Below are positions 42,196 through 64,000 of a stretch of 64,000 nt of DNA, in pieces. Position numbers and translations under genes: made by a program. Numbering within the stretch: position 1 is the first letter of the stretch; the number at the start of each line of letters is the position of its first letter. The notes below the pieces were generated by a model, which was given only the letters and a program-made list of their open reading frames with translations, ran no database searches and was not told the origin of the DNA. Source of the stretch: Sulfitobacter sp. (GTDB taxonomy: Bacteria; Pseudomonadota; Alphaproteobacteria; Rhodobacterales; Rhodobacteraceae). The stretch spans positions 10,020 to 74,019 of the forward strand of contig JBDVSG010000159.1 in the NCBI GenBank assembly GCA_039967155.1, written 5' to 3'.

Positions 42196-42212
42196 GGCCG
42201 TGACGGGATACA

Positions 42213-44001: not shown

Positions 44002-44087
44002 GAGCTTGATGTCGCAATTCTCGATGTAAATTTAGGAAGCGGAAAAACATCAGAGCCCATCGCGGATATTCTCAAACAAAGGAAGCC
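44002..44087 (+). pseudogene. fragment of a response-regulator receiver domain
   Basis: Reads ELDVAILDVNLGSGKTSEPIADILKQRKP, a central receiver segment with no start and no remainder. Confidence 0.55.
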
Positions 44088-45476: not shown

Positions 45477-45771
45477 GAAGGCGTCCTGAAATTGCATAAA
45501 TTAGATGGAAATTTAGGGTCAAAGGCAGAAAGCCATGAGACATCGTCAGGTATTAAGGGAATCGGCTTGGTTTTGGCTTTGCGGTGGCAAGTCGAAACGA
45601 AGTCTGGCGACGGCATTTGTTGGGCCCCAAGTCTGCTGGTTTTGATACCAATCGGATTGGTCGTGGTAGATGGCACGAGCTGTCACCAAACCTTTTCAGG
45701 AATTCAGAGTCGAGCCTCAGAAAATGGGCACTCTCCTGATTGGGAAGTGCCCTAATTTCTGAGTACGCTTG

Positions 45772-46656: not shown

Positions 46657-46720
46657 GGGCTTTCCTCCTATCCCGTGGGGTGACTGCGGAACGGTCTCCC
46701 TTGTTTGCCAAACGATCGGA

Positions 46721-47566
46721 TCATGTGCTCGTCGGCATTTTTTCCAATGCTTCCATAAAGAACGGACGAAACCCGTCTGGGTGCTCGCTCATCGGGAAGT
46801 GACCTAATTTATCCATAACCGCGATGGTCGACCCTTTGATCGCATCTGCTGTGCGCTTTGCATCGTCAGGCGTGCAGGTCAGGTCATACGCTCCGACGAT
46901 GATATGCACGGGGGTCTTCGCGGTATCGATGTTTCCCAAACGCGCAATAAGGCTATCATCGCGGGTGTAAAAACTCAAATCGCCCCGAAAAACGCCCGGG
47001 CCTGATTGCTTGAACATCCATAACGTATTTTCGCGTTCAGCGGTTGGCGCATGGGGCGAAATATTGGCGGAAACCAAAGCGGCCCCCATCTCGCCGCCAT
47101 GTGCGTCTGGGCGGTCAAACCAATCGATGTCGTACCAAGCGGGTTGAAAATCCGAGGCTTCGATCGCGATGAAACCGCTGAACTTGTCTGGGTGAAGGGC
47201 CGCCAGTTGAAGCGCAATGCGCCCGCCCATGGAACAGCCAGAAAGCACGGGGCGATCAAGTCCGAGCGCTTCGATCAGTTCTAGGATGGTTTCAATATAT
47301 GCCTCGGTCGTCAGCAGATATTCCTGCGTTTCGAAACCTTCCGGCGGCAAGGACTTACCGTGCCACGGTAGATCAAACGCGATCAATCGGTTTGATTTAG
47401 TCACCTCTGCATCGTTCATAAGGTGGCGCCATTGGCGCGTGTCAGCGCCCGCCGTATGCAAGCACAAGACAGGGCGGCCTTCTCCGGCTTCCTCGAAATA
47501 GATACGGCGCGGAGTACCCTCTACGGTGATGGTCACATAGCGTCCGGTGATCGGTTCGATGCTCAT
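46721..47566 (-). CDS. alpha/beta hydrolase (enol-lactonase-like)
   Basis: Trimmed to ATG 47566. GCSMGG nucleophile elbow and C-terminal GHFPMSEHP. Confidence 0.82.
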   Translation of the reverse strand: MSIEPITGRYVTITVEGTPRRIYFEEAGEGRPVLCLHTAGADTRQWRHLMNDAEVTKSNRLIAFDLPWHGKSLPPEGFETQEYLLTTEAYIETILELIEALGLDRPVLSGCSMGGRIALQLAALHPDKFSGFIAIEASDFQPAWYDIDWFDRPDAHGGEMGAALVSANISPHAPTAERENTLWMFKQSGPGVFRGDLSFYTRDDSLIARLGNIDTAKTPVHIIVGAYDLTCTPDDAKRTADAIKGSTIAVMDKLGHFPMSEHPDGFRPFFMEALEKMPTST

Positions 47567-47949
47567 GCTGAGGCCTTTTTGGGAGGGCGCGGTAGCGCCA
47601 TGACAGATTTGAAGAACCGCAAGTTCTTGACCAGACATAGAATGTCGCCATCGATCTTACCGCGTCCAATAGTTACAAGGCCAAAAATGTCGTGAAACTT
47701 AGGCTCAGGAACTGGCTGCCAGAACCTTTGCAGGGCATCCCGGTCCGTGCGAAAGGCAAAGCGCCAAGGCGTTTTTCGGCTTGGTCCAGGCGTCACATCA
47801 ACGAGATGGCCTTTTTCAAACGTGAGATAGATTTCGCCGCCGTCGATCTCGATCAAGACGGTCTCTGAAAACAGACTACCCACACGCAAGAGATGTGGGG
47901 TAGCATTCAACTGTTTCTGAATCTCTTGAAATACCTCAATCACGTGCAT
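47563..47949 (-). CDS. SCP2-like small protein
   Basis: Trimmed to ATG 47949. ATGA-type overlap with the hydrolase gene. Weak SCP2 sterol-carrier-like pattern only. Confidence 0.5.
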   Translation of the reverse strand: MHVIEVFQEIQKQLNATPHLLRVGSLFSETVLIEIDGGEIYLTFEKGHLVDVTPGPSRKTPWRFAFRTDRDALQRFWQPVPEPKFHDIFGLVTIGRGKIDGDILCLVKNLRFFKSVMALPRPPKKASA

Positions 47950-48172
47950 CTCCCAATAATGCGAGCTTGCGTATTGGTGCCATGTGGGGCGGCGTCTTAG
48001 CCATGCCGCGTGTGGTATCGACTGATACTTTAGTTGCTGCAAACACAGATGGAGTGATAAATTGAAGGTGAATCGAGTGCGAGAAAACGGCGTTCAATGT
48101 GTCCGGTGTTTTGAATTCTCTGCGCGTTGTTATAGTCTTCTTAAAAAGCTTGATCGAGGCATTTGACTAAAG

Positions 48173-49063
48173 ATGAATTTCAAACAAATGACCTATTTTG
48201 TTGCGGTCGCCGAAGAGCTTCACTTTGGCCGTGCTGCGGAGCGGCTTGAGATGGCGCAACCGCCGCTTAGCCGCCAAATCAAGCAGATTGAGGAAGAGCT
48301 GGAAGCAAGCCTTTTTAACAGGGGGCGGAGCGCGATCACACTCACGCAAGCAGGTGAAAAATTGCTTGAACGAAGCAAGTCCATTCTGGCCCAACTGGAC
48401 GATACCAAACTTGAAATCAGGCGGTTGGGGCAAGGTGCCGAGGGTCGCCTTCGCATCGGGTTTGTCGGGTCCGCCACCTATGGGATCGTGCCCAGCATCA
48501 TCAAATCGTTCCGCGCAACCTACCCGTTGGTCAACATGAACCTGATTCCTCTCAACAACGCCCAGCTTCAACGACAGCTCGTTGCGCGCATGATTGATGT
48601 GGCCTTTGCCCGCCCAGCGTTGCGTGACTCCGAGTTTGCGATGAAACAGCTCGTGGATGAGGATTTGATCATTGCAGTGCCAGATACGCTGGATACGGGC
48701 ACCGGACAGACCACTGATTTGGGAATGCTCGCTGCGCATAACCTGATTTTGTATCCCGAATACCCGCGCCCCAGCTATGCCGACACGGTGCTAAGGGCAT
48801 GCATGGATGCTGGATATGAAGTCCCAAACCGTGTGTTCACAATGGACCTTCAAACGGCGCTTAGCCTTGTGGCAATCGGCGAAGGCGCTTGTATCGTGCC
48901 TGCATCTGTGGGCTCGGCTACGCGGAATGGAATAAAGTTTCTTAGGATTGAGCCTCAAATTGGGCGTACCGCAATTTCGATCAATTACCGATTGGATGAG
49001 CAAGGCGTTCATGTTCACAACTTCGTAAAGGTTGCTCAAAGTGTCGCCAGAAAACTGACTTGA
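48173..49063 (+). CDS. LysR family transcriptional regulator (CatR-like)
   Basis: MTYFVAVAEELHFGRAAERLEMAQPPLSRQIKQIE. Sits among cat genes. Confidence 0.88.
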   Translation: MNFKQMTYFVAVAEELHFGRAAERLEMAQPPLSRQIKQIEEELEASLFNRGRSAITLTQAGEKLLERSKSILAQLDDTKLEIRRLGQGAEGRLRIGFVGSATYGIVPSIIKSFRATYPLVNMNLIPLNNAQLQRQLVARMIDVAFARPALRDSEFAMKQLVDEDLIIAVPDTLDTGTGQTTDLGMLAAHNLILYPEYPRPSYADTVLRACMDAGYEVPNRVFTMDLQTALSLVAIGEGACIVPASVGSATRNGIKFLRIEPQIGRTAISINYRLDEQGVHVHNFVKVAQSVARKLT

Positions 49064-49094
49064 GACTTAGATACTCGCGCCTCAATCCTTTTAG

Positions 49095-50231
49095 CTATGC
49101 GCTACAGTCGCGGCGAAAATGTGCAATTTTGTCGGCATCCAAGGTAACACCGATGCCATTGCCCTTGGGGACTTCAACGTGAAAATCCCTAAAGATAATG
49201 GGGTCGGCCAAAATATCGTTGGTCAACAAGAGAGGGCCAAAAAGCTCGGTGCCCCAATGCAGTGCCTCAACCGTCGAAAAGAGCTGAAGCGCCCCAGCTG
49301 TACTTAGGCCAGTTTCAAGCATTGTGCCCGCATAAAGACCCAAGCCCGCAGCTTGCGCAGTTGCAATCACTTCTGAGGCTCGCTTCAGTCCGCCAGACTG
49401 ACCAATCTTTACGGCAAACACGTCAGCAGCACCCCGTGCTGCGACAGCCAAGGCATCCTCTGGGCCATTTAGAGACTCGTCAGCCATGACCGCAATTTCA
49501 TAAGACCTTGTGAGTTCTGCCATAGCGTCAAGATTGCGGGCTGCTACAGGCTGCTCAACCAACTCGCATCCTGCGTCTTGCAAACCCTTCAGCCCCCAAC
49601 GCGCATCTTGTAGTGACCATGCGGTATTAACATCAACACGAACGCTCGCGTCATCGCCAAGTGCTGTTTTTATCCGGGCAACATGCGCGATGTCATCACG
49701 TACAGAACGTTTGCCGATCTTGAGCTTGAAAATATTGTGACGGCGAGACTCGATCATTTCGTGCGCTTCGGTGATGTCGGTGTCACAGCAACCCGATGCA
49801 AGTGTCCAAGCGACAGGTAATTTATCCGACACAGCCCCGCCGAATAGTTGAGATACGGGCACGCCAAGACGTTTTCCCAACCCATCCCAGAGAGCGATTT
49901 CGACAGCTGCTTTCGCAATGCGATTGCCGCGGACCAACGTGTCTATGAGTTGCAGCGCACCGTTCACATTGTCGCCGCTGCGGCCGACGAGAGCAGGGGT
50001 AATATATGAAGTGATCGCGGATTGAATGCTTTCAGGACTTTCAGGGCCGTAAGCGAGGCCACCTATCGTCGTCCCCTCACCAAGTCCTTCAGATCCATCC
50101 GAGAACAAGATCCGCACTAAGACTACGGACTGAGACCGCATAGTCGCCATCGAAAGCACGTGACCTCGGATTGTTGGGAGATCGAGGATAATCGTTTCGA
50201 TCCGGTCGATTTTTGTCACAAGCATCACCAT
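49095..50231 (-). CDS. catB: muconate cycloisomerase (MR/MLE enolase superfamily)
   Basis: 378 aa with KLKIGKRSVRDDIAHV, VRVDVNTAW, MADESL metal/acid-base motifs and MLETGL. Confidence 0.88.
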   Translation of the reverse strand: MVMLVTKIDRIETIILDLPTIRGHVLSMATMRSQSVVLVRILFSDGSEGLGEGTTIGGLAYGPESPESIQSAITSYITPALVGRSGDNVNGALQLIDTLVRGNRIAKAAVEIALWDGLGKRLGVPVSQLFGGAVSDKLPVAWTLASGCCDTDITEAHEMIESRRHNIFKLKIGKRSVRDDIAHVARIKTALGDDASVRVDVNTAWSLQDARWGLKGLQDAGCELVEQPVAARNLDAMAELTRSYEIAVMADESLNGPEDALAVAARGAADVFAVKIGQSGGLKRASEVIATAQAAGLGLYAGTMLETGLSTAGALQLFSTVEALHWGTELFGPLLLTNDILADPIIFRDFHVEVPKGNGIGVTLDADKIAHFRRDCSA

Positions 50232-50365
50232 GCAATTGAGTTTTGATCTTTATCAGAATGCAGTTTGGCACATTCTTCTGTCTATGATTTCCTAGGTCTT
50301 GGTTGATACCCTAAATGCCAACAGCGTCGTTCGCGTATCAAGATCAATTCCAAATATGAGAGGAG

Positions 50366-50647
50366 CTAGGGGGAGTGGCCAATTTGTCTAGTTGTTGGGA
50401 ATAGTGTCAGGTTCCGATTTCGGGTGAGCATACTCCAAAGACCCCGTGGCTTCAAAAGCATGATGGCAACAGAAATTAGCCCCAGAATGATCATGTACCA
50501 ACTGCCAAGATCCGCCAGAAACTCCCTCAACACGAAGAACAATATGCAGCCAATGATTGGACCCTCAAGCGTGCCAATACCGCCGATCCCGACAATAAAA
50601 ATGACCAAAATAGACCAATCATTGACGCTAAAGGCAGCCTCCGGTGT
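50366..50647 (-). pseudogene. C-terminal fragment of a branched-chain amino-acid ABC permease (LivM/LivH-like)
   Basis: ...ILVIFIVGIGGIGTLEGPIIGCILFFVLREFLADLG...LLKPRGLW is a typical Liv permease tail. It is fused in-frame to an IS orfA stub inside track ORF 50366..50830. Confidence 0.6.
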
Positions 50648-50815
50648 GATCCTGATCTTTTCTTCGGATGAATATTGCTTGCGCGTTGCACGCTTGATGT
50701 CTTTGACGATCTTCTCGCCGGGGCTCTGCGTTGTCTTTCTCATCGTCCACTCCTCAGTGGCTATGATGAGCAACAAACACTCTCTTAGCAAACACAGCCA
50801 TTTGGACCCATAGGC
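50648..50815 (-). pseudogene. left end plus first 32 codons of an IS3-family orfA (remnant)
   Basis: From ATG 50743: MRKTTQSPGEKIVKDIKRATRKQYSSEEKIRI. The upstream about 70 nt parallels 42127-42195. Confidence 0.6.
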
Positions 50816-50861
50816 GCTGACGTCAGACAAGGTCTGCTTTTTGTGGGCGCAACAGTTTCGT

Positions 50862-50985
50862 GCTGTAGAGCAGCGAATGTCCGGTTTCCGCCCTTATGCC
50901 GATCGACACGAACGGCCCAAAGCGGACTTTGACCATGCGATCCGGTGCTGCGCCGCATATTCTCAAAAGCGGACATTGAGGAATT
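50862..50985 (-). repeat. dispersed ~80-120-nt repeat (inverted copy)
   Basis: The rc reads ...gcagcaccggatcgcatggtcaaagtccgctttgggccgttcgtgtcgatcgg, aligning with 58950-59005. Confidence 0.55.
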
Positions 50986-51200
50986 GTGACCATCCATCAT
51001 TGGTCTAGGCAAACGGAAGTTGCCACAACGCCACCTCACTGGTCACTCTCAGGAGAAACTGGTCTGACGAACTTTGGTTCTTTCTAATGATTTGACTGAC
51101 AATGGTTTTGTAGTGTTCTGGTACAGGTACACGAGATCATCCGGACAGCTATATTGCGTAGATGTATAATACTTCAAAGAAGCTTGGGCTGAGGTAATTT

Positions 51201-51872
51201 TTGATGGGCGAGAACGTATTGGGTGTCTTAGTCGGCGTGTTCGCTTTTTTGCTCATTGCCCCAGTTCTTTTAGCACTCGGTGATGTGTTGCCTTGGCTTC
51301 TGAACGCACCGTGGCTTGTACTTTCGTTCGGCGATTGGCTTGTTTTGCTGGTTATCCTAACACTTACCTTCTTGGCGCAATGGATATTCCTCATGTACGT
51401 CAACGAACGCAAAGAGATAGCTATTATGCGACTGATGACGTTGCTTCCCCTTTGGGCAGTATACAGTTTAGCAAAATTCGCATTTTCAGCTTTTGGTTTT
51501 GATTGGGTGGACGGGTTGCCTTGGATTTCGTTTGGTGAACTGACCGGAATGCTGCTCGCTATCCTTGCTTTACCCTTGGACTTCGGAATTGGAGTGGTCG
51601 TTGGTTACATTGATGGTCATTCCATTTCAAACGCGACTTGGTGTAGAACTGCTCAGGATTTCGCTCTTCAATCTGGGTATGATTTGACAGACGTTGGAAT
51701 TAGGAGAGGCCTAAGCATAGGCTGGAGCCTTGTTTTTAGTGAAGCTGCCGGCGAGTACATGTATTACGAACGCCTCCAACGAGAATTTTTCGACTTTGAC
51801 CTACGTAGCTCGTTCAGCGGTGCCTACCAGCTTGTGAAATTGGGTTATACATTTGGTTGTTTTTCGGCGTGA
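51201..51872 (+). CDS. hypothetical polytopic membrane protein
   Basis: 223-aa ORF with about 5 TM helices and a soluble C-terminal about 80 aa. No recognised motif. Convergent with the 52327-57060 operon. Confidence 0.5.
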   Translation: MMGENVLGVLVGVFAFLLIAPVLLALGDVLPWLLNAPWLVLSFGDWLVLLVILTLTFLAQWIFLMYVNERKEIAIMRLMTLLPLWAVYSLAKFAFSAFGFDWVDGLPWISFGELTGMLLAILALPLDFGIGVVVGYIDGHSISNATWCRTAQDFALQSGYDLTDVGIRRGLSIGWSLVFSEAAGEYMYYERLQREFFDFDLRSSFSGAYQLVKLGYTFGCFSA

Positions 51873-52326
51873 ACGGTTGTTTTCGCACGTACGCAACGCC
51901 TTAGTTGCTAAGAGAGAAAAGAAGCCAGATGATTGGCACATTCTTGCTGCTGCGCTTACGGCCCTTTGCTGCCGTTGACTACGACATCTAAATGCTGCTG
52001 TCGCAGCCCGCATTGCCGCTATTCGCTGCGCGTGCAAATTTGGAGCTGATCGAACTCACAGATCGCGGGATAAAGCAGCCTTTCCCGAGCTGTAGATGAC
52101 GGCTTGCTTTTCGAATCTGCTTTCGGGATTCGACTGTTTAGCAACTATGGAGCAGTGGATTTTCAATGCGCGTAATGCTTGTGTTAAGTGATTGATTTTA
52201 TTAGAATTGCGCCGAACGGTGCTAGTGGTTTTCTAAATTGAGTATGGACACGCGGATTGCACAATTCAAGCCCGCCTTTCACATTGCACCTGCTTGGCCA
52301 TAAGCAGCGTCGCAGATGCTAAAGCA

Positions 52327-53328
52327 TCAGTAGTTCATTTCTTCCTGAAACCGAAAGTCGCTTTGCAAACAGTACTTAATCGACAGAGCGGCGTTCAAAG
52401 CAGCCACATGCTGCCATTCATCGCTCTTATCGCTGTCGGCATAGTCACAACCAGCCCGAAACACGAGCCACTCTACATTTGCCAAAACACAAGACGTCGC
52501 GAAGCCCGAGGCTTCCATTTCAACCATTGTAATAAGTCTGTCAATCTCATCCGATTGCTCCTTAAAGCCTCCGTCCTTTCTTAACGTTTCTCCGGAAAGT
52601 AATTTCTTTACACTGAATTTAGGATCAAAAGTTTCGAGTTGTTCCTTCGACGGTACAAGCCCATCAATCTGCGGTATCAATGAAAAAATCTCGTCTTTGA
52701 AAGAAGACTGCTCGGAATAACGATTTCGTCGATCTGCGTGTGTGGAAATCAAGTTGTTCATTTCCTCAGAGATATTATCCACCTTGTTTTCAGGCAGCTT
52801 CCCGTCAACAGTTTCGACGCCGCCAGCAACATAGGTAACTGATGAAAACGCATTGCAAGTGCCTAAAGCTTGGTCATTACGAGTTCCTGCAATGCCACTT
52901 AGTATTACTAATCTCGGTTTGTGTCTTTCTATGAGTTGGCTTGTTCGAGGACCGGAGTTAAGATTCATTTGGCTATTGATTGTAGTAAGGACAACGCTGA
53001 GTGGCGCTAGCCCGCCACGTCTGGATAAGTCAAACTCAAATACACTCAACGATTTCACTCGGGAGGTCGGATTTTCAATATCTTGCCCGAAAGCTAACGC
53101 CGCCGAGCGCAATTCAAGTGGTATCGGGGTTACGACTAAGACATCGCAGCCAAAATCGGTATCACTTTTGACCTCAAAGTTCTCCTCTTCGTGCATGCGT
53201 GCGACCAGATCTTCGTTCAATAGGTTGTGCATCCCAAAAACGTCGGTATCCATATCCGCAAGTATTGCTCGCCCTGGCGGGCTCCGCATTAGAGAGCTCA
53301 AAGCTTTCAAGAATAACTGTTCAGACAA
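52327..53328 (-). CDS. PNP_UDP_1 (nucleoside phosphorylase / nucleosidase) family protein
   Basis: 333 aa. Fold-typical strands DVLVVTPIPLELRSAALAF, RLVILSGIAG, MVEMEASGFA, LVFRAGCDYAD. TTG start 2 nt after the upstream stop, with an AGGTGG SD 7 nt upstream. Confidence 0.72.
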   Translation of the reverse strand: MSEQLFLKALSSLMRSPPGRAILADMDTDVFGMHNLLNEDLVARMHEEENFEVKSDTDFGCDVLVVTPIPLELRSAALAFGQDIENPTSRVKSLSVFEFDLSRRGGLAPLSVVLTTINSQMNLNSGPRTSQLIERHKPRLVILSGIAGTRNDQALGTCNAFSSVTYVAGGVETVDGKLPENKVDNISEEMNNLISTHADRRNRYSEQSSFKDEIFSLIPQIDGLVPSKEQLETFDPKFSVKKLLSGETLRKDGGFKEQSDEIDRLITMVEMEASGFATSCVLANVEWLVFRAGCDYADSDKSDEWQHVAALNAALSIKYCLQSDFRFQEEMNY

Positions 53329-53330
53329 TT

Positions 53331-55121
53331 TTAGGCCACCTGGATTTCATGCGAAGGGGTGGGAATTGTATAGAGCGGACGAATTGGATATCGTACCCGT
53401 AGCTCTCTGTCGGTCACCTTAAGAAGGGCTACTCCCAGCACTATGTCTAGGCCGATTTCGTCCGATAGAAGGTCCAAGCACTCAAAAGTAGCTCCTGATA
53501 CAATTAGCTCATCGACTACTATCGCCTGCATTCTTCGATCGCCCTTCAAGCCGGAAACCTCTCTCGCATACTTGACTTGCTCAACTAGGCGATCGATTTC
53601 GTCCAAGTGTTGTGCCAGCACCCCGGAAAGAGTAAATTTGCCCCTTTTGACATCGGTGAGATCATTCAGAAGGCATCGCGATACTGCGATCGATCTTTCG
53701 TTAGAAGTGCCTACGATGTGTTTAGATATTCGGCGCGCGGCGTCTTCGTTGACACACAATATTAAGTCGTTTTCTGATAGATTTCTTGAAATACAGGCCC
53801 GTAACTGGCTCCTGATGGCTAGAGTGAAGAACGCCAGGTTCCACTTTGTCATATTCCTAAAGTTTGGTACCGCGGGCAAAAATTCTCTATCTGGTCCGTA
53901 TTCTTCTGGTACAAATCCTGCTTCGATCATCATCGCCCAAATCTCTGCAGCTGAAAGCTTGTACTTCTTATGCGGATAACGGAGCACATCAATGTCAATA
54001 GGTAACGCCTTCCACATATCTTGGACCAAGGATGTATTCGTAACAACTGCAGCTTCATAGTGCAGATCAATCTGCATCACAGCATCTCCCTGCAGCCGTA
54101 ATACTAGTTTGCGAACGTTCTCGTCCACATATTTGCTATTACCCTCGTCAATTGTGCCGAGGCACCATGCAAATTCCGGCGGAGATGCGATGCCGCCTAG
54201 TATTGAGACAAACTGACCACCGGACCTAACTACAGAACAAAATACCGCATATTTTTTGTCGCTAACATCATGCAGCGAAACCTGATCGTGCCGTTGTATC
54301 GGCACAAACTCAATTCTCGAGTCGGCTAGCTTACTGGCATCATTAATAATTGTCGAGAACCACTCACGATCAGACAGATAAAATATCACGCTTATGTCGT
54401 TGGCTGCACAATGCTCGATCTTTTTCTGACAGAGCTGCAAGGCGTATTCACCACCCCTTGAAAAATCGTATGTAAAGGCAAATTTCTCCCCCACCGTCTG
54501 GCCGGTAAACAGACCTGGAACTCTAACGATAGTTGCCTCGTATTTTTTTTGAACGTTTGCAGTTTGCTCAAGGTAACTCTCAACGAAATCCTTCTTAACA
54601 TCTTCGCCAACTATATGAGCGGTCGATTTGTCTGTCGTTATGTTACCGGATGTAGCGTCTCCAGTAAATATAACGAAACCTTTCCCAGACCTCTTTATTT
54701 GGTCTAGTGCGGCAGCTTCAGGTGCTCCCTCAAGTAAAGAGCCGGGGCAAACAACAATAATTGCGCCGAGGCCACTTGCCAGCTTACTTTCGCAAAAATC
54801 AGCAATCCCAAAAAATATTTCTGGGTCAATTGGGTCAAATTGATTTGGCCCGCCTAAATCAAGAATTACATTTTCATTTGAACCTAGATCAGCCAGTGAC
54901 GCTTCCAACAGCTGCTTTACAGCACTACTAGCCATCCTAAAATTTGTTGAAATCCACTCAATCGGCAATATAGTTTGTAGGTTTGAAAGCGGGAATATCC
55001 GACTTGCTGCGTGCAATATCGATGCTTGTGCGCGGTCACCTAATTCGCGTCGAGTAGACTGCCCGAATCGTATAGGAAGAATATAATGTGTGCCACTTTG
55101 GTCAAATTCGAATGTTTTCAT
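53331..55121 (-). CDS. large protein with C-terminal type-I phosphoribosyltransferase (PRTase) domain
   Basis: 596 aa. PRPP-binding loop MQAIVVDELIVSGATFECL near the C-terminus. A possible second degenerate PRT-like segment (YAVFCSVVRSGGQF). The start ATG overlaps the upstream stop (ATGA at 55118-55121). Confidence 0.68.
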   Translation of the reverse strand: MKTFEFDQSGTHYILPIRFGQSTRRELGDRAQASILHAASRIFPLSNLQTILPIEWISTNFRMASSAVKQLLEASLADLGSNENVILDLGGPNQFDPIDPEIFFGIADFCESKLASGLGAIIVVCPGSLLEGAPEAAALDQIKRSGKGFVIFTGDATSGNITTDKSTAHIVGEDVKKDFVESYLEQTANVQKKYEATIVRVPGLFTGQTVGEKFAFTYDFSRGGEYALQLCQKKIEHCAANDISVIFYLSDREWFSTIINDASKLADSRIEFVPIQRHDQVSLHDVSDKKYAVFCSVVRSGGQFVSILGGIASPPEFAWCLGTIDEGNSKYVDENVRKLVLRLQGDAVMQIDLHYEAAVVTNTSLVQDMWKALPIDIDVLRYPHKKYKLSAAEIWAMMIEAGFVPEEYGPDREFLPAVPNFRNMTKWNLAFFTLAIRSQLRACISRNLSENDLILCVNEDAARRISKHIVGTSNERSIAVSRCLLNDLTDVKRGKFTLSGVLAQHLDEIDRLVEQVKYAREVSGLKGDRRMQAIVVDELIVSGATFECLDLLSDEIGLDIVLGVALLKVTDRELRVRYPIRPLYTIPTPSHEIQVA

Positions 55122-56473
55122 TGTTTTTCTTGCTCGGGGATACTTATGCTAATCAAGTTTCCCAAGAATTTTGGTAAATTATTTGGCAACTCTTGGATAT
55201 CCACAACATAGTCATGTCTCTTAATTTTAGAGCCATTGAGTTTCTTGCTTTTTTTACCCTTCGTTACTCTTATGATTACGTTGGAAGTGCGGATGATTAC
55301 CTTTCCTCCAAAGTTTGCCACCGCAGTATCCAGCAGCAAGTACAAACCCATCCCAACTGATGCCAACCTCGGGTCGTCCTCAGTTGTTTCCTCGGTACTT
55401 GCATGGCCAAACAGCGTTGGTGACATGCTTACAAAAGGCTGTAATACAAATAGTAGCTTTTCACTAATATGACTTGACGGTTCGGCATCGAGATCAGAAC
55501 CGACAACTCTATCAATCGATTGACTTTTACTTTCCGAGTTCTTCCACTTTAAACGATAGCTCCGAAAGTACTTTCCGGGGCTACTTGTTCGGAATGTCTT
55601 TTTTGTCGCTAGATTTTCTTCAATTAGATCTAACAGTGAGCGGCCGTTGTCCCAGTAATGAACTACTGCGCTTTTACTTGCTTGCTTTTTGTTTCTTTGC
55701 GTCTTGTTGAATGGCAACGTGAGTTGTTGGCTTCTGTCGTATATGTATCTGGTGTGAGTAGCTGTTTGTACTATCTCCGCGGAGGGATGACGCAAGGCAT
55801 TGAAAACCGCCTCAAAGATCACACGTGCTGAAAAGTAGCGTACATCAATTCCAAGATCGCGCTCTAATAGTGTCTTAACGTTATGGTTTTGCCAGAAGCG
55901 TTTCTCATCGTTGGCGAGCTCTGGTTTCTCATGGACATTTGACGGGACCTTTATGGTTCGGAAACCGAAAAAATTGGGTCGGATCGATTCGTCATCGTCA
56001 CCATCGTCGTTCGTCGGAATTTTGTAGTGAGTTGGAAATTCGTCTAGGTCAAAAGTTGACTGCGAATCGTTCGGAAAAAAATACTTTTGTCTCGTCTCGT
56101 CATCACTAAATCGATACATTCGTCTACCGGTTGCAGCTTTGAGAGCGTCGTCAAAATTCCAAACTCTCATAATGTCCCGAACAGATTTTTTCTCAGGTAG
56201 CGAAATCGTTGTGGAGATGCCATTGCGATCCCATGCAGTAAGGTAAGAAATTAGAACTTGTGCGCTATAGCAATCCATGAACGTCACGTGAGTCAGATCG
56301 ACATGGATGCTTTGCACAGCACCACGGTTCTTCCGGAGCGTTTTAGCCAACTGCAGCTCAAACTGGCTGCCTACCATCGCTTCCTGAATGCTTAAAAGCA
56401 TGTAGGACCTGTTGGGTTTGGAGAATCTTCGGCTGATAACTTTGTCATAATGCAAAGGTAAGTAGGCGAACAT
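55118..56473 (-). CDS. STAS-domain / GHKL (SpoIIAB-RsbW-like) ATPase-kinase fusion protein
   Basis: 451 aa. STAS-like SIHVDLTHVTFMDCYSAQVLISYL...VRDIMRVWNFDDAL. GHKL N-box FEAVFNALRH, DNG, GMGLYLL. No HisKA H-box. Start (56473 vs the internal Met, codon 25 at 56401) is uncertain. Confidence 0.62.
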   Translation of the reverse strand: MFAYLPLHYDKVISRRFSKPNRSYMLLSIQEAMVGSQFELQLAKTLRKNRGAVQSIHVDLTHVTFMDCYSAQVLISYLTAWDRNGISTTISLPEKKSVRDIMRVWNFDDALKAATGRRMYRFSDDETRQKYFFPNDSQSTFDLDEFPTHYKIPTNDDGDDDESIRPNFFGFRTIKVPSNVHEKPELANDEKRFWQNHNVKTLLERDLGIDVRYFSARVIFEAVFNALRHPSAEIVQTATHTRYIYDRSQQLTLPFNKTQRNKKQASKSAVVHYWDNGRSLLDLIEENLATKKTFRTSSPGKYFRSYRLKWKNSESKSQSIDRVVGSDLDAEPSSHISEKLLFVLQPFVSMSPTLFGHASTEETTEDDPRLASVGMGLYLLLDTAVANFGGKVIIRTSNVIIRVTKGKKSKKLNGSKIKRHDYVVDIQELPNNLPKFLGNLISISIPEQEKQ

Positions 56474-56535
56474 GAGATAAACTCAACGAAATTCGCCCAA
56501 TGGTTCAACGATCCTGTTAAATTTAGACTGATCTG

Positions 56536-57060
56536 TTACGTTCGCGCCACTTCGTATCGCATGATGTGTCGCTCCACAGTACGGAAAATCACATATACAC
56601 CTAGCACGCAAACAATCCAGCTGGCTATGTTGGGTAAAATCTGCAGGCCACTGCTCCATGCGATTTGAGTGCAAAAAACTGATACGCCGCCAAACGCGAT
56701 TACATCAATGATTGCTTGAATTCGCTTGCGCAGCCTTCGCCAGGCCTCCTTTTCAATCTGCGCTTCCCAAACAAGCTCATTGGGATATTGTGCTTTGAGA
56801 AAGTCGCGGATGCCTGATATTTTTACTTCATTTTCTAAATATAAGTGGCCGAGTAGGCTCGCGACGAACGCCAGTATTATCCAAGCATCGACTGGCGATG
56901 CTGGAAGCAATGCGTATCCGCCTAAACCACCGTAAGCTGCAAATGCCGCGTAAAACAGACCATCTCGAAATTTGATCCGATCCCTTTGTTCCGCTTTCAC
57001 TTCCGCAAATTCTGCTAGTTTCCATTCTGTGTTTGCCACCGTAGTTTTATCTCCCGTCAT
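56536..57060 (-). CDS. 4-TM membrane protein, unknown function (first gene of the operon)
   Basis: ORF 56536..57138 trimmed to ATG 57060 (MTGDKTTVANTEW...). Two helix pairs separated by a charged about 45-aa loop. 62 nt upstream of the next gene. Confidence 0.5.
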   Translation of the reverse strand: MTGDKTTVANTEWKLAEFAEVKAEQRDRIKFRDGLFYAAFAAYGGLGGYALLPASPVDAWIILAFVASLLGHLYLENEVKISGIRDFLKAQYPNELVWEAQIEKEAWRRLRKRIQAIIDVIAFGGVSVFCTQIAWSSGLQILPNIASWIVCVLGVYVIFRTVERHIMRYEVART

Positions 57061-58175
57061 GTAACTCTTCCAAACTTTGGCCAAATATCCATAGCATCTT
57101 AACAACCGCGAGATATATTGAATGCATCGCGTCGGCAAAACTGCCTAGCGGACGTTGTTTTAGAGGCCCAAATTGTCATTTTCTGTAGATGGATCAAATA
57201 TCATCCAACGCCATCAATCTATAGTTCATTCAGCCTCTCGGACATAACAAAATGAAAATTTTCCGCGTCTGTCCTCTACCAACCTTATTTCCTTGGCAAT
57301 CAAAAAACGGTCGCTTTGCCCGTCAGGTCACAACATTACGTTTGCGGCTGTTGTTTGGGAAAGCGCTCTGTTCAGCCATTTGAAGGAGAACCGATGGGGC
57401 AGGCAAGTTTGTTGTATTCTGAGGGGCTTGATGGTCTCGATTTCTGTTGAAAAACAAACTACTATGACGTGCTCTGCGTTCACCGGTACATATCAAAAAA
57501 TCAGCCCTCGGGCTCCATCAATAGTTCAACTTCCTCATATTTTGGAGTTCGTTGGTCTCATAGTTTGGTCAATTCCTGAACAAAACCGGATGGATTATCG
57601 GCGAGGCCTCCCCTGGCTCCGAGCATTCGATCTTGGTGCAAATCTTGGTACGTCTTTGAGCGGTGCTAAGTTTCATTTTTCTAGCATTTTACTGCTAAGG
57701 CGTTGAAGCTAAATTGCTTCTGATCTAATTAGAGCTAATGAAAGGGTGAATCTCGCAATCCCTTCGTCTCCGCCCTTTTCAGACAGCCCCTTCACTGCAG
57801 ATCTGCTTTCAAGTTTCCGCCAGCGGTCGTTCGTCTTCTTTGCAACTTCAAACATTGCGGTCTCTTTGCCGCAATCGGAGCAAACACAGAATTCTTGGGT
57901 TCGGCCTCTCGTCGAATGGCGGCTTTTGATGGATCACTTTTGAGGCCGCGCACCCGCAGCGAAGGTCCGGAATCCGCCGTGTTCCGCTGTCCCAGCGAAT
58001 GTCTCCTTCGACAGGCTGTACTGCGGCAATACAAGCGGTAGGCCAATGGACGCAATGGGCCGTCCTCGAAACAGTGGTCCACTAAGCTCACACCTAAACT
58101 GCTCCGTCTCCGCAGCCAATTATCGGCCCAAACGACTGACGCCCCAACTAAGTAACCGCCCTGTTCAAGCTTGTA

Positions 58176-58838
58176 TCAACGCTGAAAACTCACTGGTTTA
58201 GGGTACAAGAGTTCGATTTCTTGCTGTGTTGTTGGAATACCTTCAATCGGCCACCAAAGATGATCCGCATTAGGGATAATCGTCAGAAAGAAGGGCTCAA
58301 CCTGAGTGCTTCTGTCGAAGTAGTTTAGTGCGCCAAAACAGATAACCTGTTCCAATTCGGGATCAAAGAGGAGAACTTGAGGTTTGAATTCAATTTGTAG
58401 AGCAGCGCTTGGAGCAACAATGCTCTCCTTGGTTGACCAGAACTCGACTTCTAAACCGTCATTTTCTTTTGAATGCCCCATGGCATTGTCCAGTCCAAAG
58501 GTGCACCTTAAATTCGAGCCAAAATTTGCTGACTTGTTGCCAAAATTGTAGGCGCTTAGATTGATTATCTTGCGTTCACTATCGAAGTACCCCGAAAGAT
58601 TAACTTCTAAGTCCGGGTAAAACTCATCATAGAAGTCCAATAGTGTTCGACTTCCAAGTGATGCGACGGACAGTAATGCGACTAACAGGGCAAGCGACGT
58701 ATTTGAAATACCAACGTGCCTTCGCCAGTTCTGCCAAGAACCGCATTCCAAGCAGACTTTCTGATCCGTTTTTAGGGAAGAACCACACGCCCAGCAAACT
58801 TTTTCCTTCAACGCTCTTCTCCGAAAATATTGGTTCAT
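58176..58838 (-). CDS. zinc-ribbon / single-TM / beta-rich ectodomain protein, unknown function
   Basis: 220 aa. CWACG...CLECG zinc ribbon, TM helix SLALLVALLSVASLG, then an about 150-aa non-repetitive domain. Confidence 0.55.
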   Translation of the reverse strand: MNQYFRRRALKEKVCWACGSSLKTDQKVCLECGSWQNWRRHVGISNTSLALLVALLSVASLGSRTLLDFYDEFYPDLEVNLSGYFDSERKIINLSAYNFGNKSANFGSNLRCTFGLDNAMGHSKENDGLEVEFWSTKESIVAPSAALQIEFKPQVLLFDPELEQVICFGALNYFDRSTQVEPFFLTIIPNADHLWWPIEGIPTTQQEIELLYPKPVSFQR

Positions 58839-58931
58839 AAGCTATTTGAAATAAAGTCTCATGTGTTGCTGAATAACTGATCACGGACAAAATCACTACT
58901 TCCTTTTGGCCCCAAATCCCGCAGAATAGTC

Positions 58932-59010
58932 CAAAGTCTGCTTTGGTGAGCTGCACCACAGCACCAACCATCTAGGTCAAGGTCAGCTTCGGGCCGTTCA
59001 TTCGATCGTG
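58932..59010 (+). repeat. dispersed repeat copy A
   Basis: caaagtctgctttggtgagctgcaccacagcaccaaccatctaggtcaaggtcagcttcgggccgttcattcgatcg. Confidence 0.55.
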
Positions 59011-59057
59011 AGCGGCAGCGACCCGCAGGAAGCGGCCCTCACGAGGAGTCCAAGTTT

Positions 59058-59903
59058 TCAGCTTCCCTGACTGGCAGCCGCAACCTTCGCTTTCTTGTGT
59101 TCTTGCGCTTCTTTGTTCCGCAAGCGGCTAGCGTTCTTCGCCAACTCCACAGCTGTTTGAAGAAAGATTTCAACCAGCTGAAGCCGGTCTTCTTTGTTTT
59201 CCCAAAGATCAATGGTGGCCCAAAGCACCCCGAGCGTTGTCTTGGACAGCTCGCGTAAATTATACTTCATGTCATCGGGACCGGCCATGTAGCTATTATC
59301 GGTCGCATACATAAGTACATTCCGCCCGTTTGCCATATCGTGAAGATACCTTAGAGCGGCGGCTTCTTCAGAATACATTGCATAGATTTCTTGCGCGAAT
59401 GAATAAACCAGTTCGCCATCAGCACCGCTCATATTAAGAATTTTCAAGGAAGCAGGTGCATAACTGGCTTTGTCTTCATCGTTAAATCGGACAATGATCC
59501 GGTCTTTGTCTTTAGAATATGCCAGTGCGAGCTTGTAGTCCTTACTAACTCTATTAGTCACCTCCGTTAAGACCCAGCTTAGCGCCGACTTGTAACTGTG
59601 ATTACCGATGTTGAATTGATCTGTAAGGTCTGCGTATTGGCCGACGGATGCGCAGCCGACGAATGCCACCACCGCCTCTTCGAGAGCATGTGTCAGGCAG
59701 AACGTGGCCGGAACGCTGAATCTGTATCGTCTATCCAACGATGAGTGGAGCGTCGAAATGCCGCCCGCCCAATACAACGCACTCAAAGCATTGTTTGCAC
59801 GGAACTTAGCTTCATCTGGCAAATCGCCAATTCTGGCCCGCACCCACAATGCCATCTCGCTCTCCACCATGCGGAGCAATTCGGGGTGAATTTTCGTGGA
59901 CAT
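59058..59903 (-). CDS. hypothetical protein (281 aa), no recognised domain
   Basis: Clean ORF with moderate AT bias. Lys/Ala-rich C-terminal tail. Flanked by direct copies of the dispersed repeat. Confidence 0.55.
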   Translation of the reverse strand: MSTKIHPELLRMVESEMALWVRARIGDLPDEAKFRANNALSALYWAGGISTLHSSLDRRYRFSVPATFCLTHALEEAVVAFVGCASVGQYADLTDQFNIGNHSYKSALSWVLTEVTNRVSKDYKLALAYSKDKDRIIVRFNDEDKASYAPASLKILNMSGADGELVYSFAQEIYAMYSEEAAALRYLHDMANGRNVLMYATDNSYMAGPDDMKYNLRELSKTTLGVLWATIDLWENKEDRLQLVEIFLQTAVELAKNASRLRNKEAQEHKKAKVAAASQGS

Positions 59904-60072
59904 TTTTTAGGCCTTTTGAATTTAGAACGCCATTATCATCGCCCGAGAATATTGAAACATCAATGTCATGCGTCGGGCAGCCTCAATTTTTGTCCCAAAG
60001 ACCATGCTACCTAAGGTGCAGCTTCGTCCACACCACAGACCTCGACTTGCCAGTCAATACTGTGAGTTGCGA

Positions 60073-60140
60073 CAAAAGTCTGCTTCGGTGAACTGCGGTG
60101 CGGCATCTGTCGGTGTACCAAACGTCCGGTTTGGGCCGAG
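60073..60140 (+). repeat. dispersed repeat copy B
   Basis: caaaagtctgcttcggtgaactgcggtgcggcatctgtcggtgtaccaaacgtccggtttgggccgag. Same orientation as copy A. Confidence 0.5.
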
Positions 60141-60268
60141 AGTGTAGCTACAGTCCGTATCCCGTAAATTTGCAACCAAACGTAGGTTTCGATGCCGGCT
60201 CAATTATTTGGCTACCGAAATTTGGCCTGATGCTAATTAAAAGTTGTTCTTTTCAAACGGGCGCATAA

Positions 60269-62125
60269 GTGGACTCTATGAAATCAGATCACCGCAAGCG
60301 CCCCTTAAAGTTGCAGCCTTCACACAAGTCTGGAGAAACAGCCATGTCCCTGGTTTCTCGGATCGCAGCAAGTTTTGGCACTGACGCAAAAACCTTTTGC
60401 CTCCACAAGGGCACGTCCTTCCTTCGAGTGATTAGTGGTGACCAGGCCGCGTTCAACAAGTTGAAACGCTTCGGTGTTTCAATTCCGGACGGGGTTCTCT
60501 TCTGGAGCCCTGTTCGAAAGCCGTCGAGTATACGTGAGTTTATAGGCCACCGCTTCCCCAGCAAGGTAATTTTAGGTTCTGAGGTAAGAGGATGCCCGGT
60601 ATGCCTTCGTCAGGATGCTAAGACTTCAGACGCCCCAGCCCATGTAGCAATGACCATGCAGGGGAACTGGTTAGTACCGCATGTCACCCTGTGCCTCAAA
60701 CATCAGCATCCGCTTGTACCGCTCTGGCATGACACGGTCCCTGCTTCACGCTACGATTCCGCACCCCACCTCGAAATCCTCACACATGACGTTTTATCCG
60801 GTTTACTGGATCAGAAATCTCGAGATGCAACAGATTTCGATATTTGGATAGAAGCTCGGCTTTGCGGTGAGCAAGGTAGCGGATGGTTGGATCAAATGCC
60901 CCTCCACCCTGCGGCAAATTTCTGCTTCATGCTGGGGAGCGCGCTTCTGCGTCATGAAATGGAGACCCCGACTTACGCAGCCAAGGAGGATCGTTGGGCA
61001 GTGTATCAGATGGGGTATGCGGTTGCCCGTCATGGACAATCAAATGTGGCGACTGCTTTTAGAAACCTTCAAACACTTCCTGGCGGTCCTCATGACGGTC
61101 CGAAGAAAATTTTTCCGGTTCTCTACGAGAGACTGGCCCACTATTACGCTGATAATGCGGATTACGAGCCGTTCCGGGACCTTCTACGTCAGCATATGTT
61201 AGAAACTTGGCCTTTGGGCGTTGGCGATGAGCTACTTGGTCAGCCGGTCACAGAACGCAAAACTCACTCCGTTCTGACAGCCTCCCGAACCACAGGCATT
61301 GATCAGCGCCGCCTGCGGAAGTTGCTGGCTGCAGTGAACATTGTAAGGGACGCTGAATCAGGTCTATCCGATGCTTGGGAAGTCTTTGATGCTGAGCTTG
61401 CCAAGCCAATTCTGAACGAGCTTTCTACTCTGGTTGATGCAAAGGCCTTTGCTTCCCTAATTGGGGCAACTCGCTCACAGTTTGATAGGCTGGTAAAGGA
61501 TGGTGTCATAAGGCCGGAATTAAGTGGAACGGACCTTAAAACCACCTGGAGTCCTTCTGAGGGGGCCAAATTTTTAGATAGCCTTCGTATGGGTGCTGTT
61601 CAGCTAAGGCATGCAAAACAAAATTGGGTGCATCTCTCGAAATCAGCCCAACGGCTCAAAATTGGCCCAGGCTCAATAGTGAGAGCAATTCAGGATGGCC
61701 AGATCAAAAGAGTTGGCAATCATGTTTGTTTTGTTGGGTACGCCGCAATTTTCGTTGATCACGATGAGGTGGTAAATGTGCTCAGTACCGACGCTCCCGA
61801 TGCGCAAAGTATTGAAATCTTTGCTAAGACCGTTGGCATCAACCAACCAAGCAGAATGCGTCGTCTTATAGCCAACGGACATACGTCTGCCACGGTGATA
61901 CAAAACCCCAAAACAAGAGCTCAGCAAAACTATCTGACAGTAGAGGACGCCGACGCATTTCATTCCAAGTTCATGACACCGCGGACGATGGCCAAGGAAT
62001 ATGGACGCAGCTGGCAAAGTCTTGGCGCAGAGTTAAGGTCGAAGGGTGTAAATCCGTTTTCCCCAAATGGAGAAGTTTATGGCAGCCTATTTTTGCGGAG
62101 CGATGTAGCCAAAGAAATCCAGTAA
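60269..62125 (+). CDS. tniQ: TniQ family protein (Tn7 TnsD/TniQ-type target selector)
   Basis: 618 aa. N-terminal TniQ pattern LQPSHKSGETAMSLVSRIAASFG and zinc-finger-like RGCPVCL...LCLKHQHPL. Long helical C-terminal region. Start could be 60278. Confidence 0.82.
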   Translation: MDSMKSDHRKRPLKLQPSHKSGETAMSLVSRIAASFGTDAKTFCLHKGTSFLRVISGDQAAFNKLKRFGVSIPDGVLFWSPVRKPSSIREFIGHRFPSKVILGSEVRGCPVCLRQDAKTSDAPAHVAMTMQGNWLVPHVTLCLKHQHPLVPLWHDTVPASRYDSAPHLEILTHDVLSGLLDQKSRDATDFDIWIEARLCGEQGSGWLDQMPLHPAANFCFMLGSALLRHEMETPTYAAKEDRWAVYQMGYAVARHGQSNVATAFRNLQTLPGGPHDGPKKIFPVLYERLAHYYADNADYEPFRDLLRQHMLETWPLGVGDELLGQPVTERKTHSVLTASRTTGIDQRRLRKLLAAVNIVRDAESGLSDAWEVFDAELAKPILNELSTLVDAKAFASLIGATRSQFDRLVKDGVIRPELSGTDLKTTWSPSEGAKFLDSLRMGAVQLRHAKQNWVHLSKSAQRLKIGPGSIVRAIQDGQIKRVGNHVCFVGYAAIFVDHDEVVNVLSTDAPDAQSIEIFAKTVGINQPSRMRRLIANGHTSATVIQNPKTRAQQNYLTVEDADAFHSKFMTPRTMAKEYGRSWQSLGAELRSKGVNPFSPNGEVYGSLFLRSDVAKEIQ

Positions 62126-62147
62126 CAGGCTGATATAATAAATAAAA

Positions 62148-62184
62148 GGAACGGAGCTCGCTGCTCCGTTCTTTCTGTTTTTTG
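62148..62184 (+). terminator. rho-independent terminator after tniQ
   Basis: ggaacggagc tcgct gctccgttc(t) stem followed by ttctgtttttt. Confidence 0.8.
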
Positions 62185-62208
62185 CAAACTCAAGCTTTAA
62201 AACAGCTC

Positions 62209-62258
62209 TGCGGAAAACCTATGGTGTGATTCACGGAAAAGGTATGCTGTGACTGACA
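62209..62258. repeat. element terminal sequence (right/tniQ-proximal end), ends ...ACA
   Basis: tgcggaaaacctatggtgtgattcacggaaaaggtatgctgtgactgaca is 50/50 identical to 42451-42500. It contains two cggaaaa sub-repeats, and similarity to the other copy stops exactly here. Confidence 0.8.
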
Positions 62259-62277
62259 GCTACATCAAACCTACCTA

Positions 62278-64000
62278 TCAGCCGCACTTACTATGACCGC
62301 AGCTCCCACACGTCATACAGCCTTCTACCATGCGCAGGTCATATTGACCGCAACTGGGGCACGCTTTGCCGCGGGGTTGTTCCATGCCAACGATCTTGGC
62401 TTGCGGGTCAGTCTTGAGCCCCATGCCTTCACCAGCGATGAAGCCTGTTGCGATCATGTGTTGTTCGATCACGCTACCAATTGCCGCAAGGATCGATGGG
62501 ATGTATTTGCCGCCCATCCACGCACCGCCGCGCGGGTCAAAGACGGCCTTCAGCTCTTCCACAACGAATGACACATCGCCCCCGCGACGGAACACAGCCG
62601 AGACCATGCGCGTAAGGGCAACGGTCCATGCGAAATGCTCCATGTTTTTGGAGTTGATGAACACTTCAAACGGGCGACGGTGTCCGCCTACAACCAGATC
62701 GTTGATTGTGATGTAGAGCGCGTGCTCACTGTCTGGCCATTTGATTTTATAGGTAGACCCTTCCAGCTCTTCCGGACGGTCGAGCGGCTCGGTCATATAG
62801 ACGACGTCACCATGCGGAGCCTGAGGCTCTTGACCATCGTGGCTGACGACTTCGGGCGCTTCTTTTTTATCTTCGGAAACGCTTAGAACAGATCCAGTAA
62901 CATCGTTGGGACGGTAGGTCGTGCAGCCCTTACAGCCCGTGTCCCATGCTTCCATGTAGACTTCTTTGAATGTGTCAAAGGCGATGTCTTCTGGGCAGTT
63001 GATGGTTTTCGAAATGCTGCTGTCGACCCATTTCTGCGCGGCAGCCTGCATTTTCACGTGATCCAGCGGTGCCAGCGTCTGCGCGTTAACAAAGTAATCA
63101 GGCAGCTCACGGTCGCCAAATTTATCGCGCCACATTTGCACGGCGTAATCCACGACTTCCTCTTCCGTGCGGCTGCCGTCTTTTTGCAGGACTTTACGGG
63201 TGTAAGCATAGGCGAAGACCGGCTCGATGCCCGAGCTGACGTTGCCAGCATAAAGGCTGATCGTGCCTGTGGGGGCGATAGAGGTCAGCAGCGCGTTGCG
63301 GATACCATAGGTGCGGATCGCTTCGCGCACGTCTTCATCCATTGCGCGCATGGTGCCAGAGGCCAGATACTCTTCTGCGTCGAACAGCGGGAATGCGCCT
63401 TTTTCCTTCGCCAATTCCACCGAAGCCAGATACGCGGCGCGGGCAATCGCGTGCAGCCATTCTTCCGTCTGACGCGCCGCCTCGTCCGAGCCATAGCGCA
63501 GCCCCATCATCAGCAGCGCATCCGCAAGGCCAGTCACACCCAAACCGATGCGGCGCTTGTTTTTAGCTTCCAATGCTTGCGCATCCAGTGGGAATTTGGA
63601 CACATCAACCACGTTGTCCATCATCCGCACGGATGTAGCGACCAGTTTATTCAATGCCTCAAGGTCCAGCGCGGAAGCGTCCTCAAACGGGGCACTCACC
63701 AAACGGGCGAGGTTGATCGAGCCAAGCAAGCACGCGCCATAGGGTGGCAAAGGTTGCTCTCCACAGGGGTTCGTTGCTGCGATGGTTTCGCAATAGCTCA
63801 GGTTGTTTGCTTTGTTGATGCGGTCGATGAAAATCACACCTGGTTCAGCAAAGTCATAGGTGGCTTGCATGATCGCATTCCACAGATCCAAGGCCTGAAC
63901 CGTCTTGTAGGTTTTGCCGTCGAATTTCAGATCCCATGGGCCGTTGGCCTTTACCGCTTCCATAAACGGGTCAGTGATCAGGACGCTCATGTTAAACATC
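62278..64000 (-). CDS. nrdJ: class II (adenosylcobalamin-dependent) ribonucleotide reductase, C-terminal ~570 aa (gene continues beyond window end)
   Basis: [23 protein letters not shown] active-site motif and C-terminal Cys cluster CPSCG...[13 protein letters not shown]. The track start at 63999 is only the first in-window Met. Confidence 0.93.

Follow-up and report, generated by a model that had tools for sequence, protein, structure and literature searches.

A probable Tn7-like attachment site at the 3′ end of nrdJ in Sulfitobacter and related Rhodobacterales

Introduction

In Tn7, the selector protein TnsD binds the conserved 3′ coding end of glmS, and insertion takes place a short, fixed distance downstream. 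The tnsABCDE genes read inward from the right end, which is proximal to the attachment (att) site, and the presence of TnsA separates Tn7-like transposons from Tn5053/Tn402-like elements. The present analysis concerns a 64,000-nt stretch of a Sulfitobacter sp. draft genome (contig JBDVSG010000159.1; hereafter the window), in which a transposon-type end and a TniQ-family gene lie next to the 3′ end of nrdJ. A preliminary description had proposed a TniQ/TnsD-type attachment site at this position. The proposal was supported by a survey of related loci, by the fixed offset of element ends from nrdJ and by the transposition hallmarks of complete relatives. Very probably a Tn7-like transposon has inserted just downstream of nrdJ in one specific orientation, the feature being its att-proximal (Tn7R-like) end and the adjacent TniQ of 618 residues its TnsD-type selector.

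Two other ribonucleotide reductase genes have been described as att sites: nrdB for Tn7-like elements of Acinetobacter and Guyparkeria (PMC11014353), and nrdD for the Tn7 family in bacteria and archaea (bioRxiv 10.1101/2025.07.27.667033). Targeting of ribonucleotide reductase genes evolved independently several times (bioRxiv 10.1101/2025.07.27.667033). nrdJ is mentioned in neither study, nor in Faure 2023 or Benler 2021, and the last two do not mention ribonucleotide reductase. No description linking Tn7-like elements with nrdJ was found in the literature searched, which covered few subscription journals, so that an earlier description may exist.

The elements at nrdJ resemble Tn7 in several respects: a TniQ-family selector of more than 400 residues; insertion in one orientation, at a short and constant distance beyond the stop codon of a conserved housekeeping gene that is left intact; TGT...ACA ends with internal repeat arrays; a 5-bp duplication; and tnsA-like, tnsB and tnsC genes in complete members. 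They differ in their target, which is glmS in Tn7, and in a selector only remotely similar to the solved TnsD (profile E = 0.066 against 8v32). They also differ in layout: tniQ alone is att-proximal and tnsABC lies at the far end, both reading outward, whereas the Tn7 genes read inward. With the nrdB and nrdD elements they share insertion downstream of a ribonucleotide reductase gene used as att site. Those targets are class Ia beta and class III genes, whereas here the target is the class II gene nrdJ in Rhodobacterales; the comparison is by target gene, not by selector homology. The I-F3 transposons associated with CRISPR, of the Tn6677 type, provide the best structural matches to the window TniQ and likewise have a selector module parted from tnsABC by cargo. 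Unlike them, the locus described here has no visible cas genes or CRISPR array, and its TniQ is ~200 residues longer and carries its own C-terminal array. Targeting would therefore be protein-guided.

Results

The junction was read directly from the sequence. Features of the att-proximal region are:

60269-62125, plus strand: tniQ, candidate TnsD-type target selector; 618 aa, intact frame, reading toward the terminus.
62146-62174, both strands: GC-rich hairpin with T-runs on both strands, terminator-like in both directions in a consensus scan.
62191-62258, plus strand: att-proximal (right-type) family I end; two adjacent repeats of ~22 bp (..ATGGTGTGATTCACGGAAAA / GGTATGCTGTGACTGACA), terminal ACA.
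62259-62277: host spacer, exactly 19 nt between element terminus and nrdJ stop codon.
62278-63999, minus strand: 3′ part of nrdJ (class II, B12-dependent ribonucleotide reductase); Pfam Ribonuc_red_lgC, 306 bits, and TSCPD.
~62281-62364, minus strand: presumed TniQ recognition region; last ~28 nrdJ codons, encoding a conserved Cys cluster.

Positions 62241-62258 read GGTATGCTGTGACTGACA, a transposon-type terminus with last base 62258 and final triplet ACA, and the non-coding block 3′ of tniQ finishes CCTATGGTGTGATTCACGGAAAA GGTATGCTGTGACTGACA at that base. The nrdJ stop codon occupies 62278-62280 on the minus strand (TCA on the plus strand). The nrdJ frame in the window comprises the C-terminal 573 residues and ends in the Cys cluster. 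In a conservation profile of 47 genomes the last 28 codons were near-invariant at the protein level, and they would thus offer a conserved DNA target at a distance like that between TnsD and glmS. The preliminary description was accurate on each of these points: the 19-bp gap (62258 to 62278-62280) is exact, the Cys cluster is seen both in the window and in the 47-genome profile, and a TniQ gene (60269-62125) stands at the nrdJ-proximal end and points to the terminus. The hairpin resembles a terminator active in both directions, and it could act for tniQ as well as for the displaced nrdJ transcript.

The last ~240 nt of tniQ together with the non-coding block occur as three direct copies in the window (A, ~33995-34350; B, 42149-42507; C, 61908-62265). 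Copies B and C are identical through ...CTGACA and unrelated directly after, so conservation ends exactly at 62258. The 18-nt tip occurs twice (42483-42500 and 62241-62258) and the 23-nt subterminal block CCTATGGTGTGATTCACGGAAAA three times; zero occurrences are expected from shuffled sequences in both cases.

The window TniQ matches Pfam TniQ at residues 16-149 (45.8 bits; cut-off 27), which places it in that family. An AlphaFold model was obtained with a predicted local distance difference test score of 88.9. Its best Foldseek matches were TniQ proteins of I-F3 CRISPR-associated transposons (E ~3e-5, probability 1.00). Residues ~330-618 are modelled as a C-terminal array of five or six small strand-helix-helix units, for which the sole Foldseek matches were weak (E > 1); they were small DNA-binding proteins, among them Xis, BldC and MerR-family regulators. 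A PDB sequence search with the TniQ profile gave just a marginal match to TnsD (8v32, E 0.066). The ratio of nonsynonymous to synonymous substitution rates for tniQ was 0.12-0.14 (0.14 for the window copy against its closest relative), which points to purifying selection, on the window copy included.

In the TniQ tree all nrdJ-linked proteins fell into one clade (support 93/86), and the sister clade (support 100/98) adjoins a LacI-family or GNAT gene, not nrdJ; the flanking gene therefore goes with the TniQ lineage. The tree does not agree with host taxonomy, and the hosts span more than 15 genera. Directly after the sister-clade genes (27-32% identical; L040, L041, L046, L047, L048; L038, L039, L043) there is consistently either the same LacI-family regulator gene or a GNAT gene; these are candidates for further att sites in Rhodobacterales.

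A genome collection was searched with an alignment of nine clade members, yielding 52 loci. Two lay outside the clade or were fragments, and 50 were counted. The nrdJ 3′ end was found downstream of tniQ within a 4-kb flank in 31 of the 50, convergent in all. The gap between the TniQ match and nrdJ was 149-375 nt in 25 of these and 1.8-2.6 kb, with one extra gene, in the other six. At six further loci (Yoonia, Salipiger pallidus, Litoreibacter, Sulfitobacter AS92, Parasedimentitalea huanghaiensis and the second Tabrizicola soli copy) nrdJ lay on the same contig, convergent and 4.3-59 kb off, with other Tn7-like elements between. The remaining loci mostly end at contig breaks. Insertion is thus orientation-specific, at a short fixed distance from one gene, and the association is specific to this TniQ clade.

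Across loci, 14-26 nt separate the nrdJ stop codon from the element end, with boundaries set by eye and accurate to ~2 nt. Three families of ends were distinguished:

Family I (that of the window): terminal TGTSRRTYAC.CCAT..., spacer to nrdJ stop 15-21 nt.
Family II: terminal TGTCGTCCGACAT...TTTGCGACAAAAG, spacer 18-26 nt.
Family III: terminal AGCCAGAAAAAG or ACCGAGAAAAACC, GCGTGCGCA repeats, spacer 14-24 nt.

Family III ends begin AGCC/ACCG, not TGT. The family I end also occurs in L078, L094/G464, L087, G005 and G022:C2, with differing flanks, and the spacer sequence varies among relatives. In the closest relative (L078, a Sulfitobacter metagenome-assembled genome; TniQ 79% identical) the same end lies at that genome's own nrdJ and stops at TGT/ACA, followed by a different spacer of 21 nt. 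In relatives of the same genus, the stop codon of nrdJ is where DNA similarity to the window sets in, and most of them have other sequence downstream. A TniQ of this clade was present within 1.5 kb at only four of a first set of 19 Sulfitobacter nrdJ loci.

These results bear directly on the preliminary proposal. Homologous elements were not found scattered over unrelated sites (31 loci adjoin nrdJ and the six more distant ones share its locus), the position of the nrdJ-proximal junction is stable to within the range given above, and spacer plus terminus are not ancestral sequence. The outward reading of tniQ, which had been pointed out as a departure from Tn7, proved to be a conserved trait of the family.

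Closely related tniQ genes (branch lengths ~0.09) are associated with a family III end in L086 and a family I end in L087. This suggests that transposon lineages stacked at one site have exchanged the selector module.

Complete relatives were identified in G464 (uncultured Rhodobacteraceae 452-3Z), G468 and Tabrizicola soli. All three have the same layout: distal end, tnsC-tnsB-tnsA pointing to the distal end, cargo, tniQ pointing to the proximal end, nrdJ. These are also the three relatives in which both ends were located, and in each the element is flanked by a perfect 5-bp target duplication: TTAAA in G464, CCAGA in G468 and GACCG in T. soli. Such duplications had been suggested beforehand as a sign to look for. 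The G464 element has family I ends as in the window (TGTCAGTTACACC... to ...GTAATCGACA). Its left end TGTCAGTTACACCATAGG leads into tnsC (319 aa), tnsB (780 aa) and a tnsA-like gene (297 aa). Next come ~23 kb of cargo, in which a phosphonate operon is found, and then tniQ and the right end ...GGTGTAATCGACA. On the two sides the sequence is ...ac TTAAA / element / TTAAA accaatggcac, then the nrdJ stop codon, with a spacer of 16 nt; 2 nt past the left flank there is another family I right end, which is older and accompanied by a tniQ remnant. The G468 element (family II) has a 19/19 inverted repeat, TGACGTCCGACATCGAAAG, and restriction-modification cargo. The T. soli element (family III), in which tnsABC occupies the far end, has a 28-bp inverted repeat and its duplication 15 nt from the nrdJ stop codon.

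tnsB and tnsC were found in G464, G468, G465, G022 and T. soli. TnsC of the relatives matches Pfam TniB (47-67 bits), and TnsB matches rve and Mu-transpos_C. A tnsA candidate overlaps the start of tnsB. It matched NF033179 (TnsA-like) with E 9e-7 in G464 and 3e-7 in G432, below curated cut-offs, and Pfam Tn7_TnsA-like_N with sub-cut-off E values of 0.002-0.008; two of four candidates gave no match at all. Matches to TnsA models overall had E values of 1e-6 to 1e-2, below curated cut-offs. Inverted repeats, 5-bp duplications and tnsA-like, tnsB and tnsC genes in complete relatives together indicate that the family behaves as a Tn7-like transposon.

The window itself holds at least three stacked layers, with right ends at 34355, 42500 and 62258, the last being the newest. 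Their older features are:

33995-34355, plus strand: copy A (oldest); tniQ 3′ remnant and variant family I right end, tip GGTAATTAACA at 34355.
34357-34422, plus strand: inverted family I left end, starting TGTGTCACAGCATATCTTTTC; 17/18 inverted match to the right end.
42149-42500, plus strand: copy B (older); last ~60-70 tniQ codons, terminator and family I right end, at the right edge of the 34357-42500 unit.
42508-42660, plus strand: family III end, starting AGCCAGAAAAAC, four GCGTGCGCA-like repeats; faces right, 7 nt after right end B.

Terminal TGT...ACA inverted repeats with internal repeats are accordingly present in the window (62191-62258 and 34357-34422), as they are at both ends in G464. 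Copy A departs 18 nt earlier than B and C; its tip GGTAATTAACA is a variant found in Celeribacter relatives and equals the GGGTAATTCACA ends of L081/L117 at 10 of 11 positions. The left end at 34357 begins 1 nt past the older right end at 34355 and, with the right end at 42500, delimits a cargo-only unit of 8.1 kb. AACAC against CTCAC was considered as the 5-bp duplication of this unit and was unconvincing; the flanks of the layers are overwritten by later insertions. A gap of 0-7 nt separates an older right end from the left end that follows it, both in the window (34355/34357 and 42500/42508) and in G464, G432, AS92 and T. soli. The family III end type of 42508 adjoins nrdJ in 17 other genomes; apart from 42508, searching the window for such ends with a simple pattern gave chance-level matches. 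The newest layer, 42508-62258, combines a family III left end with a family I right end and is therefore a chimera, which probably arose by deletion between two stacked elements.

Several genes were noted within the layers. The first gene inside the family III end (42799-44001) encodes a Fic-domain protein (PADLOC SoFic model, E 4e-27). A cargo cassette at 52327-56473 encodes a STAS-domain protein, a 596-aa protein without Pfam match and a PNP-family nucleosidase, which matches the PADLOC 'PN-superfamily effector' model (E 8e-24). PADLOC and Pfam were uninformative for the open reading frames (ORFs) 59058-59903, 58176-58838 and 56536-57138. Farther left, an Rfam match to the Ruegeria cis8 small RNA (33467-33594, minus strand; 79.7 bits) lies inside and antisense to an ORF of 503 codons (32432-33943) whose product looks like a TctA-type transporter subunit. 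A 117-aa fragment at 27249-27602 resembles part of an IS3-family transposase and possibly marks an older island boundary or a rearrangement. The left border of the island was also sought by synteny with five same-genus genomes and could not be placed in this way: a single gene (homologue of 20999-22339) adjoins nrdJ, in G010 alone, and nothing else was common.

Other sequences at or near nrdJ were recorded. In G001:C6 190001-222000 (L070/L071) and G005:C1 (L073) a fourth end type, TGTGACTGAAAGCAATTCC, adjoins nrdJ. In G001 a tnsA-tnsB-tnsC-tniQ operon lies ~14 kb away, its 641-aa TniQ being ~24% identical to that of the window; an inverted copy of the G001 end was not found. L022 (G014) and L024 (G020) have in common a block, ggggttttggcataactatgcccg, ~25 nt downstream of nrdJ, which matches no listed end family and may belong to another element type at this hotspot. 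Short coding remnants resembling the nrdJ tail (LHVVDGCMTCSSCGY, VRVVEGCRKCTSCGYSK) lie just beyond TniQ-element ends in L025 (G005:C1, ~10036-10112) and L083 (2216-2266), at a great distance from the true nrdJ of the genome (191 kb in G005). In G005 and S. aestuarii such remnants have the offset from the displaced ends that would be expected. They resemble att sites that were displaced or duplicated.

Discussion

The comparison of genomes, across ~50 related marine bacteria, indicates that the nrdJ 3′ flank is a landing site dedicated to an entire clade of TniQ elements. By analogy with TnsD and glmS, TniQ would bind the last ~25-30 codons of nrdJ, the DNA that encodes the Cys cluster. Bound TniQ would recruit the AAA+ regulator TnsC, and TnsC would guide the TnsA/TnsB transposase to a point ~15-25 bp beyond the stop codon, where insertion would duplicate 5 bp and leave nrdJ intact. 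Reuse of the site would stack elements, each newcomer landing between nrdJ and the previous right end.

Several points weigh against this account. tnsB and tnsC occur within the same element in complete relatives and not in the window copy: none of tnsA, tnsB and tnsC was found by tblastn with three divergent query sets in the window or in the draft genome (98.7% complete, 256 contigs). The newest layer has no end pair of the same family, and hence no 5-bp duplication of its own is readable. The small gene at the tnsB start of the relatives is tentatively called TnsA, from the sub-threshold profile matches, and a distal inverted repeat was looked for in the G022 element and not found. About one or two clade members apparently lie away from nrdJ (L116; an IS3-cut remnant on G022:C2), and three clade loci are in genomes where nrdJ was not found. 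Binding of TniQ to the nrdJ 3′ coding DNA, and the bases that it would read, we infer from TnsD; third codon positions in the presumed binding region were not unusually conserved among the 47 genomes. Finally, the distant TniQ lineage of G001, and probably of G005 with the same end, is also found at nrdJ, so that the site may attract insertions for more than one reason or selector type.

The three loci without nrdJ are L080 (Celeribacter halophilus), L096 (G372) and L118; their TniQ belongs to the nrdJ-type clade, and an nrdJ of this type was not found in their genomes. G372 has only a 1222-aa reductase, ~31% identical, and its tniQ has a TAG stop.

The window copy itself is best read as a non-autonomous derivative or remnant with an intact selector gene. 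With tnsABC lost, it could move only with transposase supplied in trans. The only other TniQ-like sequence in the host genome is one fragment on contig C251, and we infer that the copy is currently immobile.

A broader proposal starts from this retained gene. One TniQ clade would have passed among at least three unrelated transposase and end lineages, with tniQ genes kept by purifying selection, even as orphans, at the site that they recognise. A resident orphan, encoded next to the site that its own product binds, would then act as a standing 'landing pad' that captures incoming, tnsABC-bearing relatives, or would regulate or block further insertion. We consider this unlikely. If true, either role would drive tandem build-up and module shuffling behind nrdJ.

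It is rather improbable that the elements home to resident ends or to a non-coding feature past nrdJ, such as the terminator, or that another protein picks the site. The landing of new elements 0-7 nt from an older right end would fit such homing, as would the use of the nrdJ site by G001-type elements, which have only a distant TniQ. Downstream spacers and flanks vary between genera, however, and only the nrdJ coding end is both conserved and at a constant distance. The distal side of the G468 element shows no recognisable older end, the TniQ of this clade is the only TniQ-family match in the G022 island and in the examined G464 and G468 regions, and the sister TniQ clades track other genes.

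Placement by a site-specific recombinase, with the nrdJ 3′ end as attB of an integrase-type genomic island and tniQ a mere passenger, is very improbable and was rejected. The Tn7-type inverted repeats with internal repeat arrays, the 5-bp duplications and the tnsA-like, tnsB and tnsC genes of complete relatives all contradict it, and insertion lies outside the nrdJ gene. The short nrdJ-tail remnants by displaced ends in G005 and S. aestuarii do resemble the replacement of gene 3′ ends by integrases; a Pfam scan of nine window ORFs, at 42.8-44 and 51-62.1 kb, gave no recombinase match. Old vertical synteny of tniQ and nrdJ without any insertion has a negligible probability: the neighbourhood recurs in many Rhodobacterales genera, but it is patchy within Sulfitobacter (the four of 19 loci above), three unrelated end families adjoin nrdJ, target duplications are perfect, the TniQ tree departs from host taxonomy and copies of the end occur elsewhere.

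Insertion of Tn7-like elements behind nrdJ under TniQ selection thus remains the favoured explanation. The evidence supports the nrdJ-site elements as a further case of established Tn7-like att-site targeting, with a new target gene. nrdJ would be added to the safe-harbour genes of the Tn7 family, as the third, independent case of ribonucleotide reductase targeting. Such targeting would account for the hypervariable island that roseobacters and their relatives carry downstream of nrdJ, the cargo of which includes defence genes, phosphonate and transporter operons and restriction-modification systems. If a complete element such as that of G464 or G468 is active, it would be a candidate for a mini-Tn7-style tool for single-copy integration in marine Rhodobacterales. 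The split, outward gene layout and the association of one selector clade with three end families bear on how modules recombine among Tn7-like elements.

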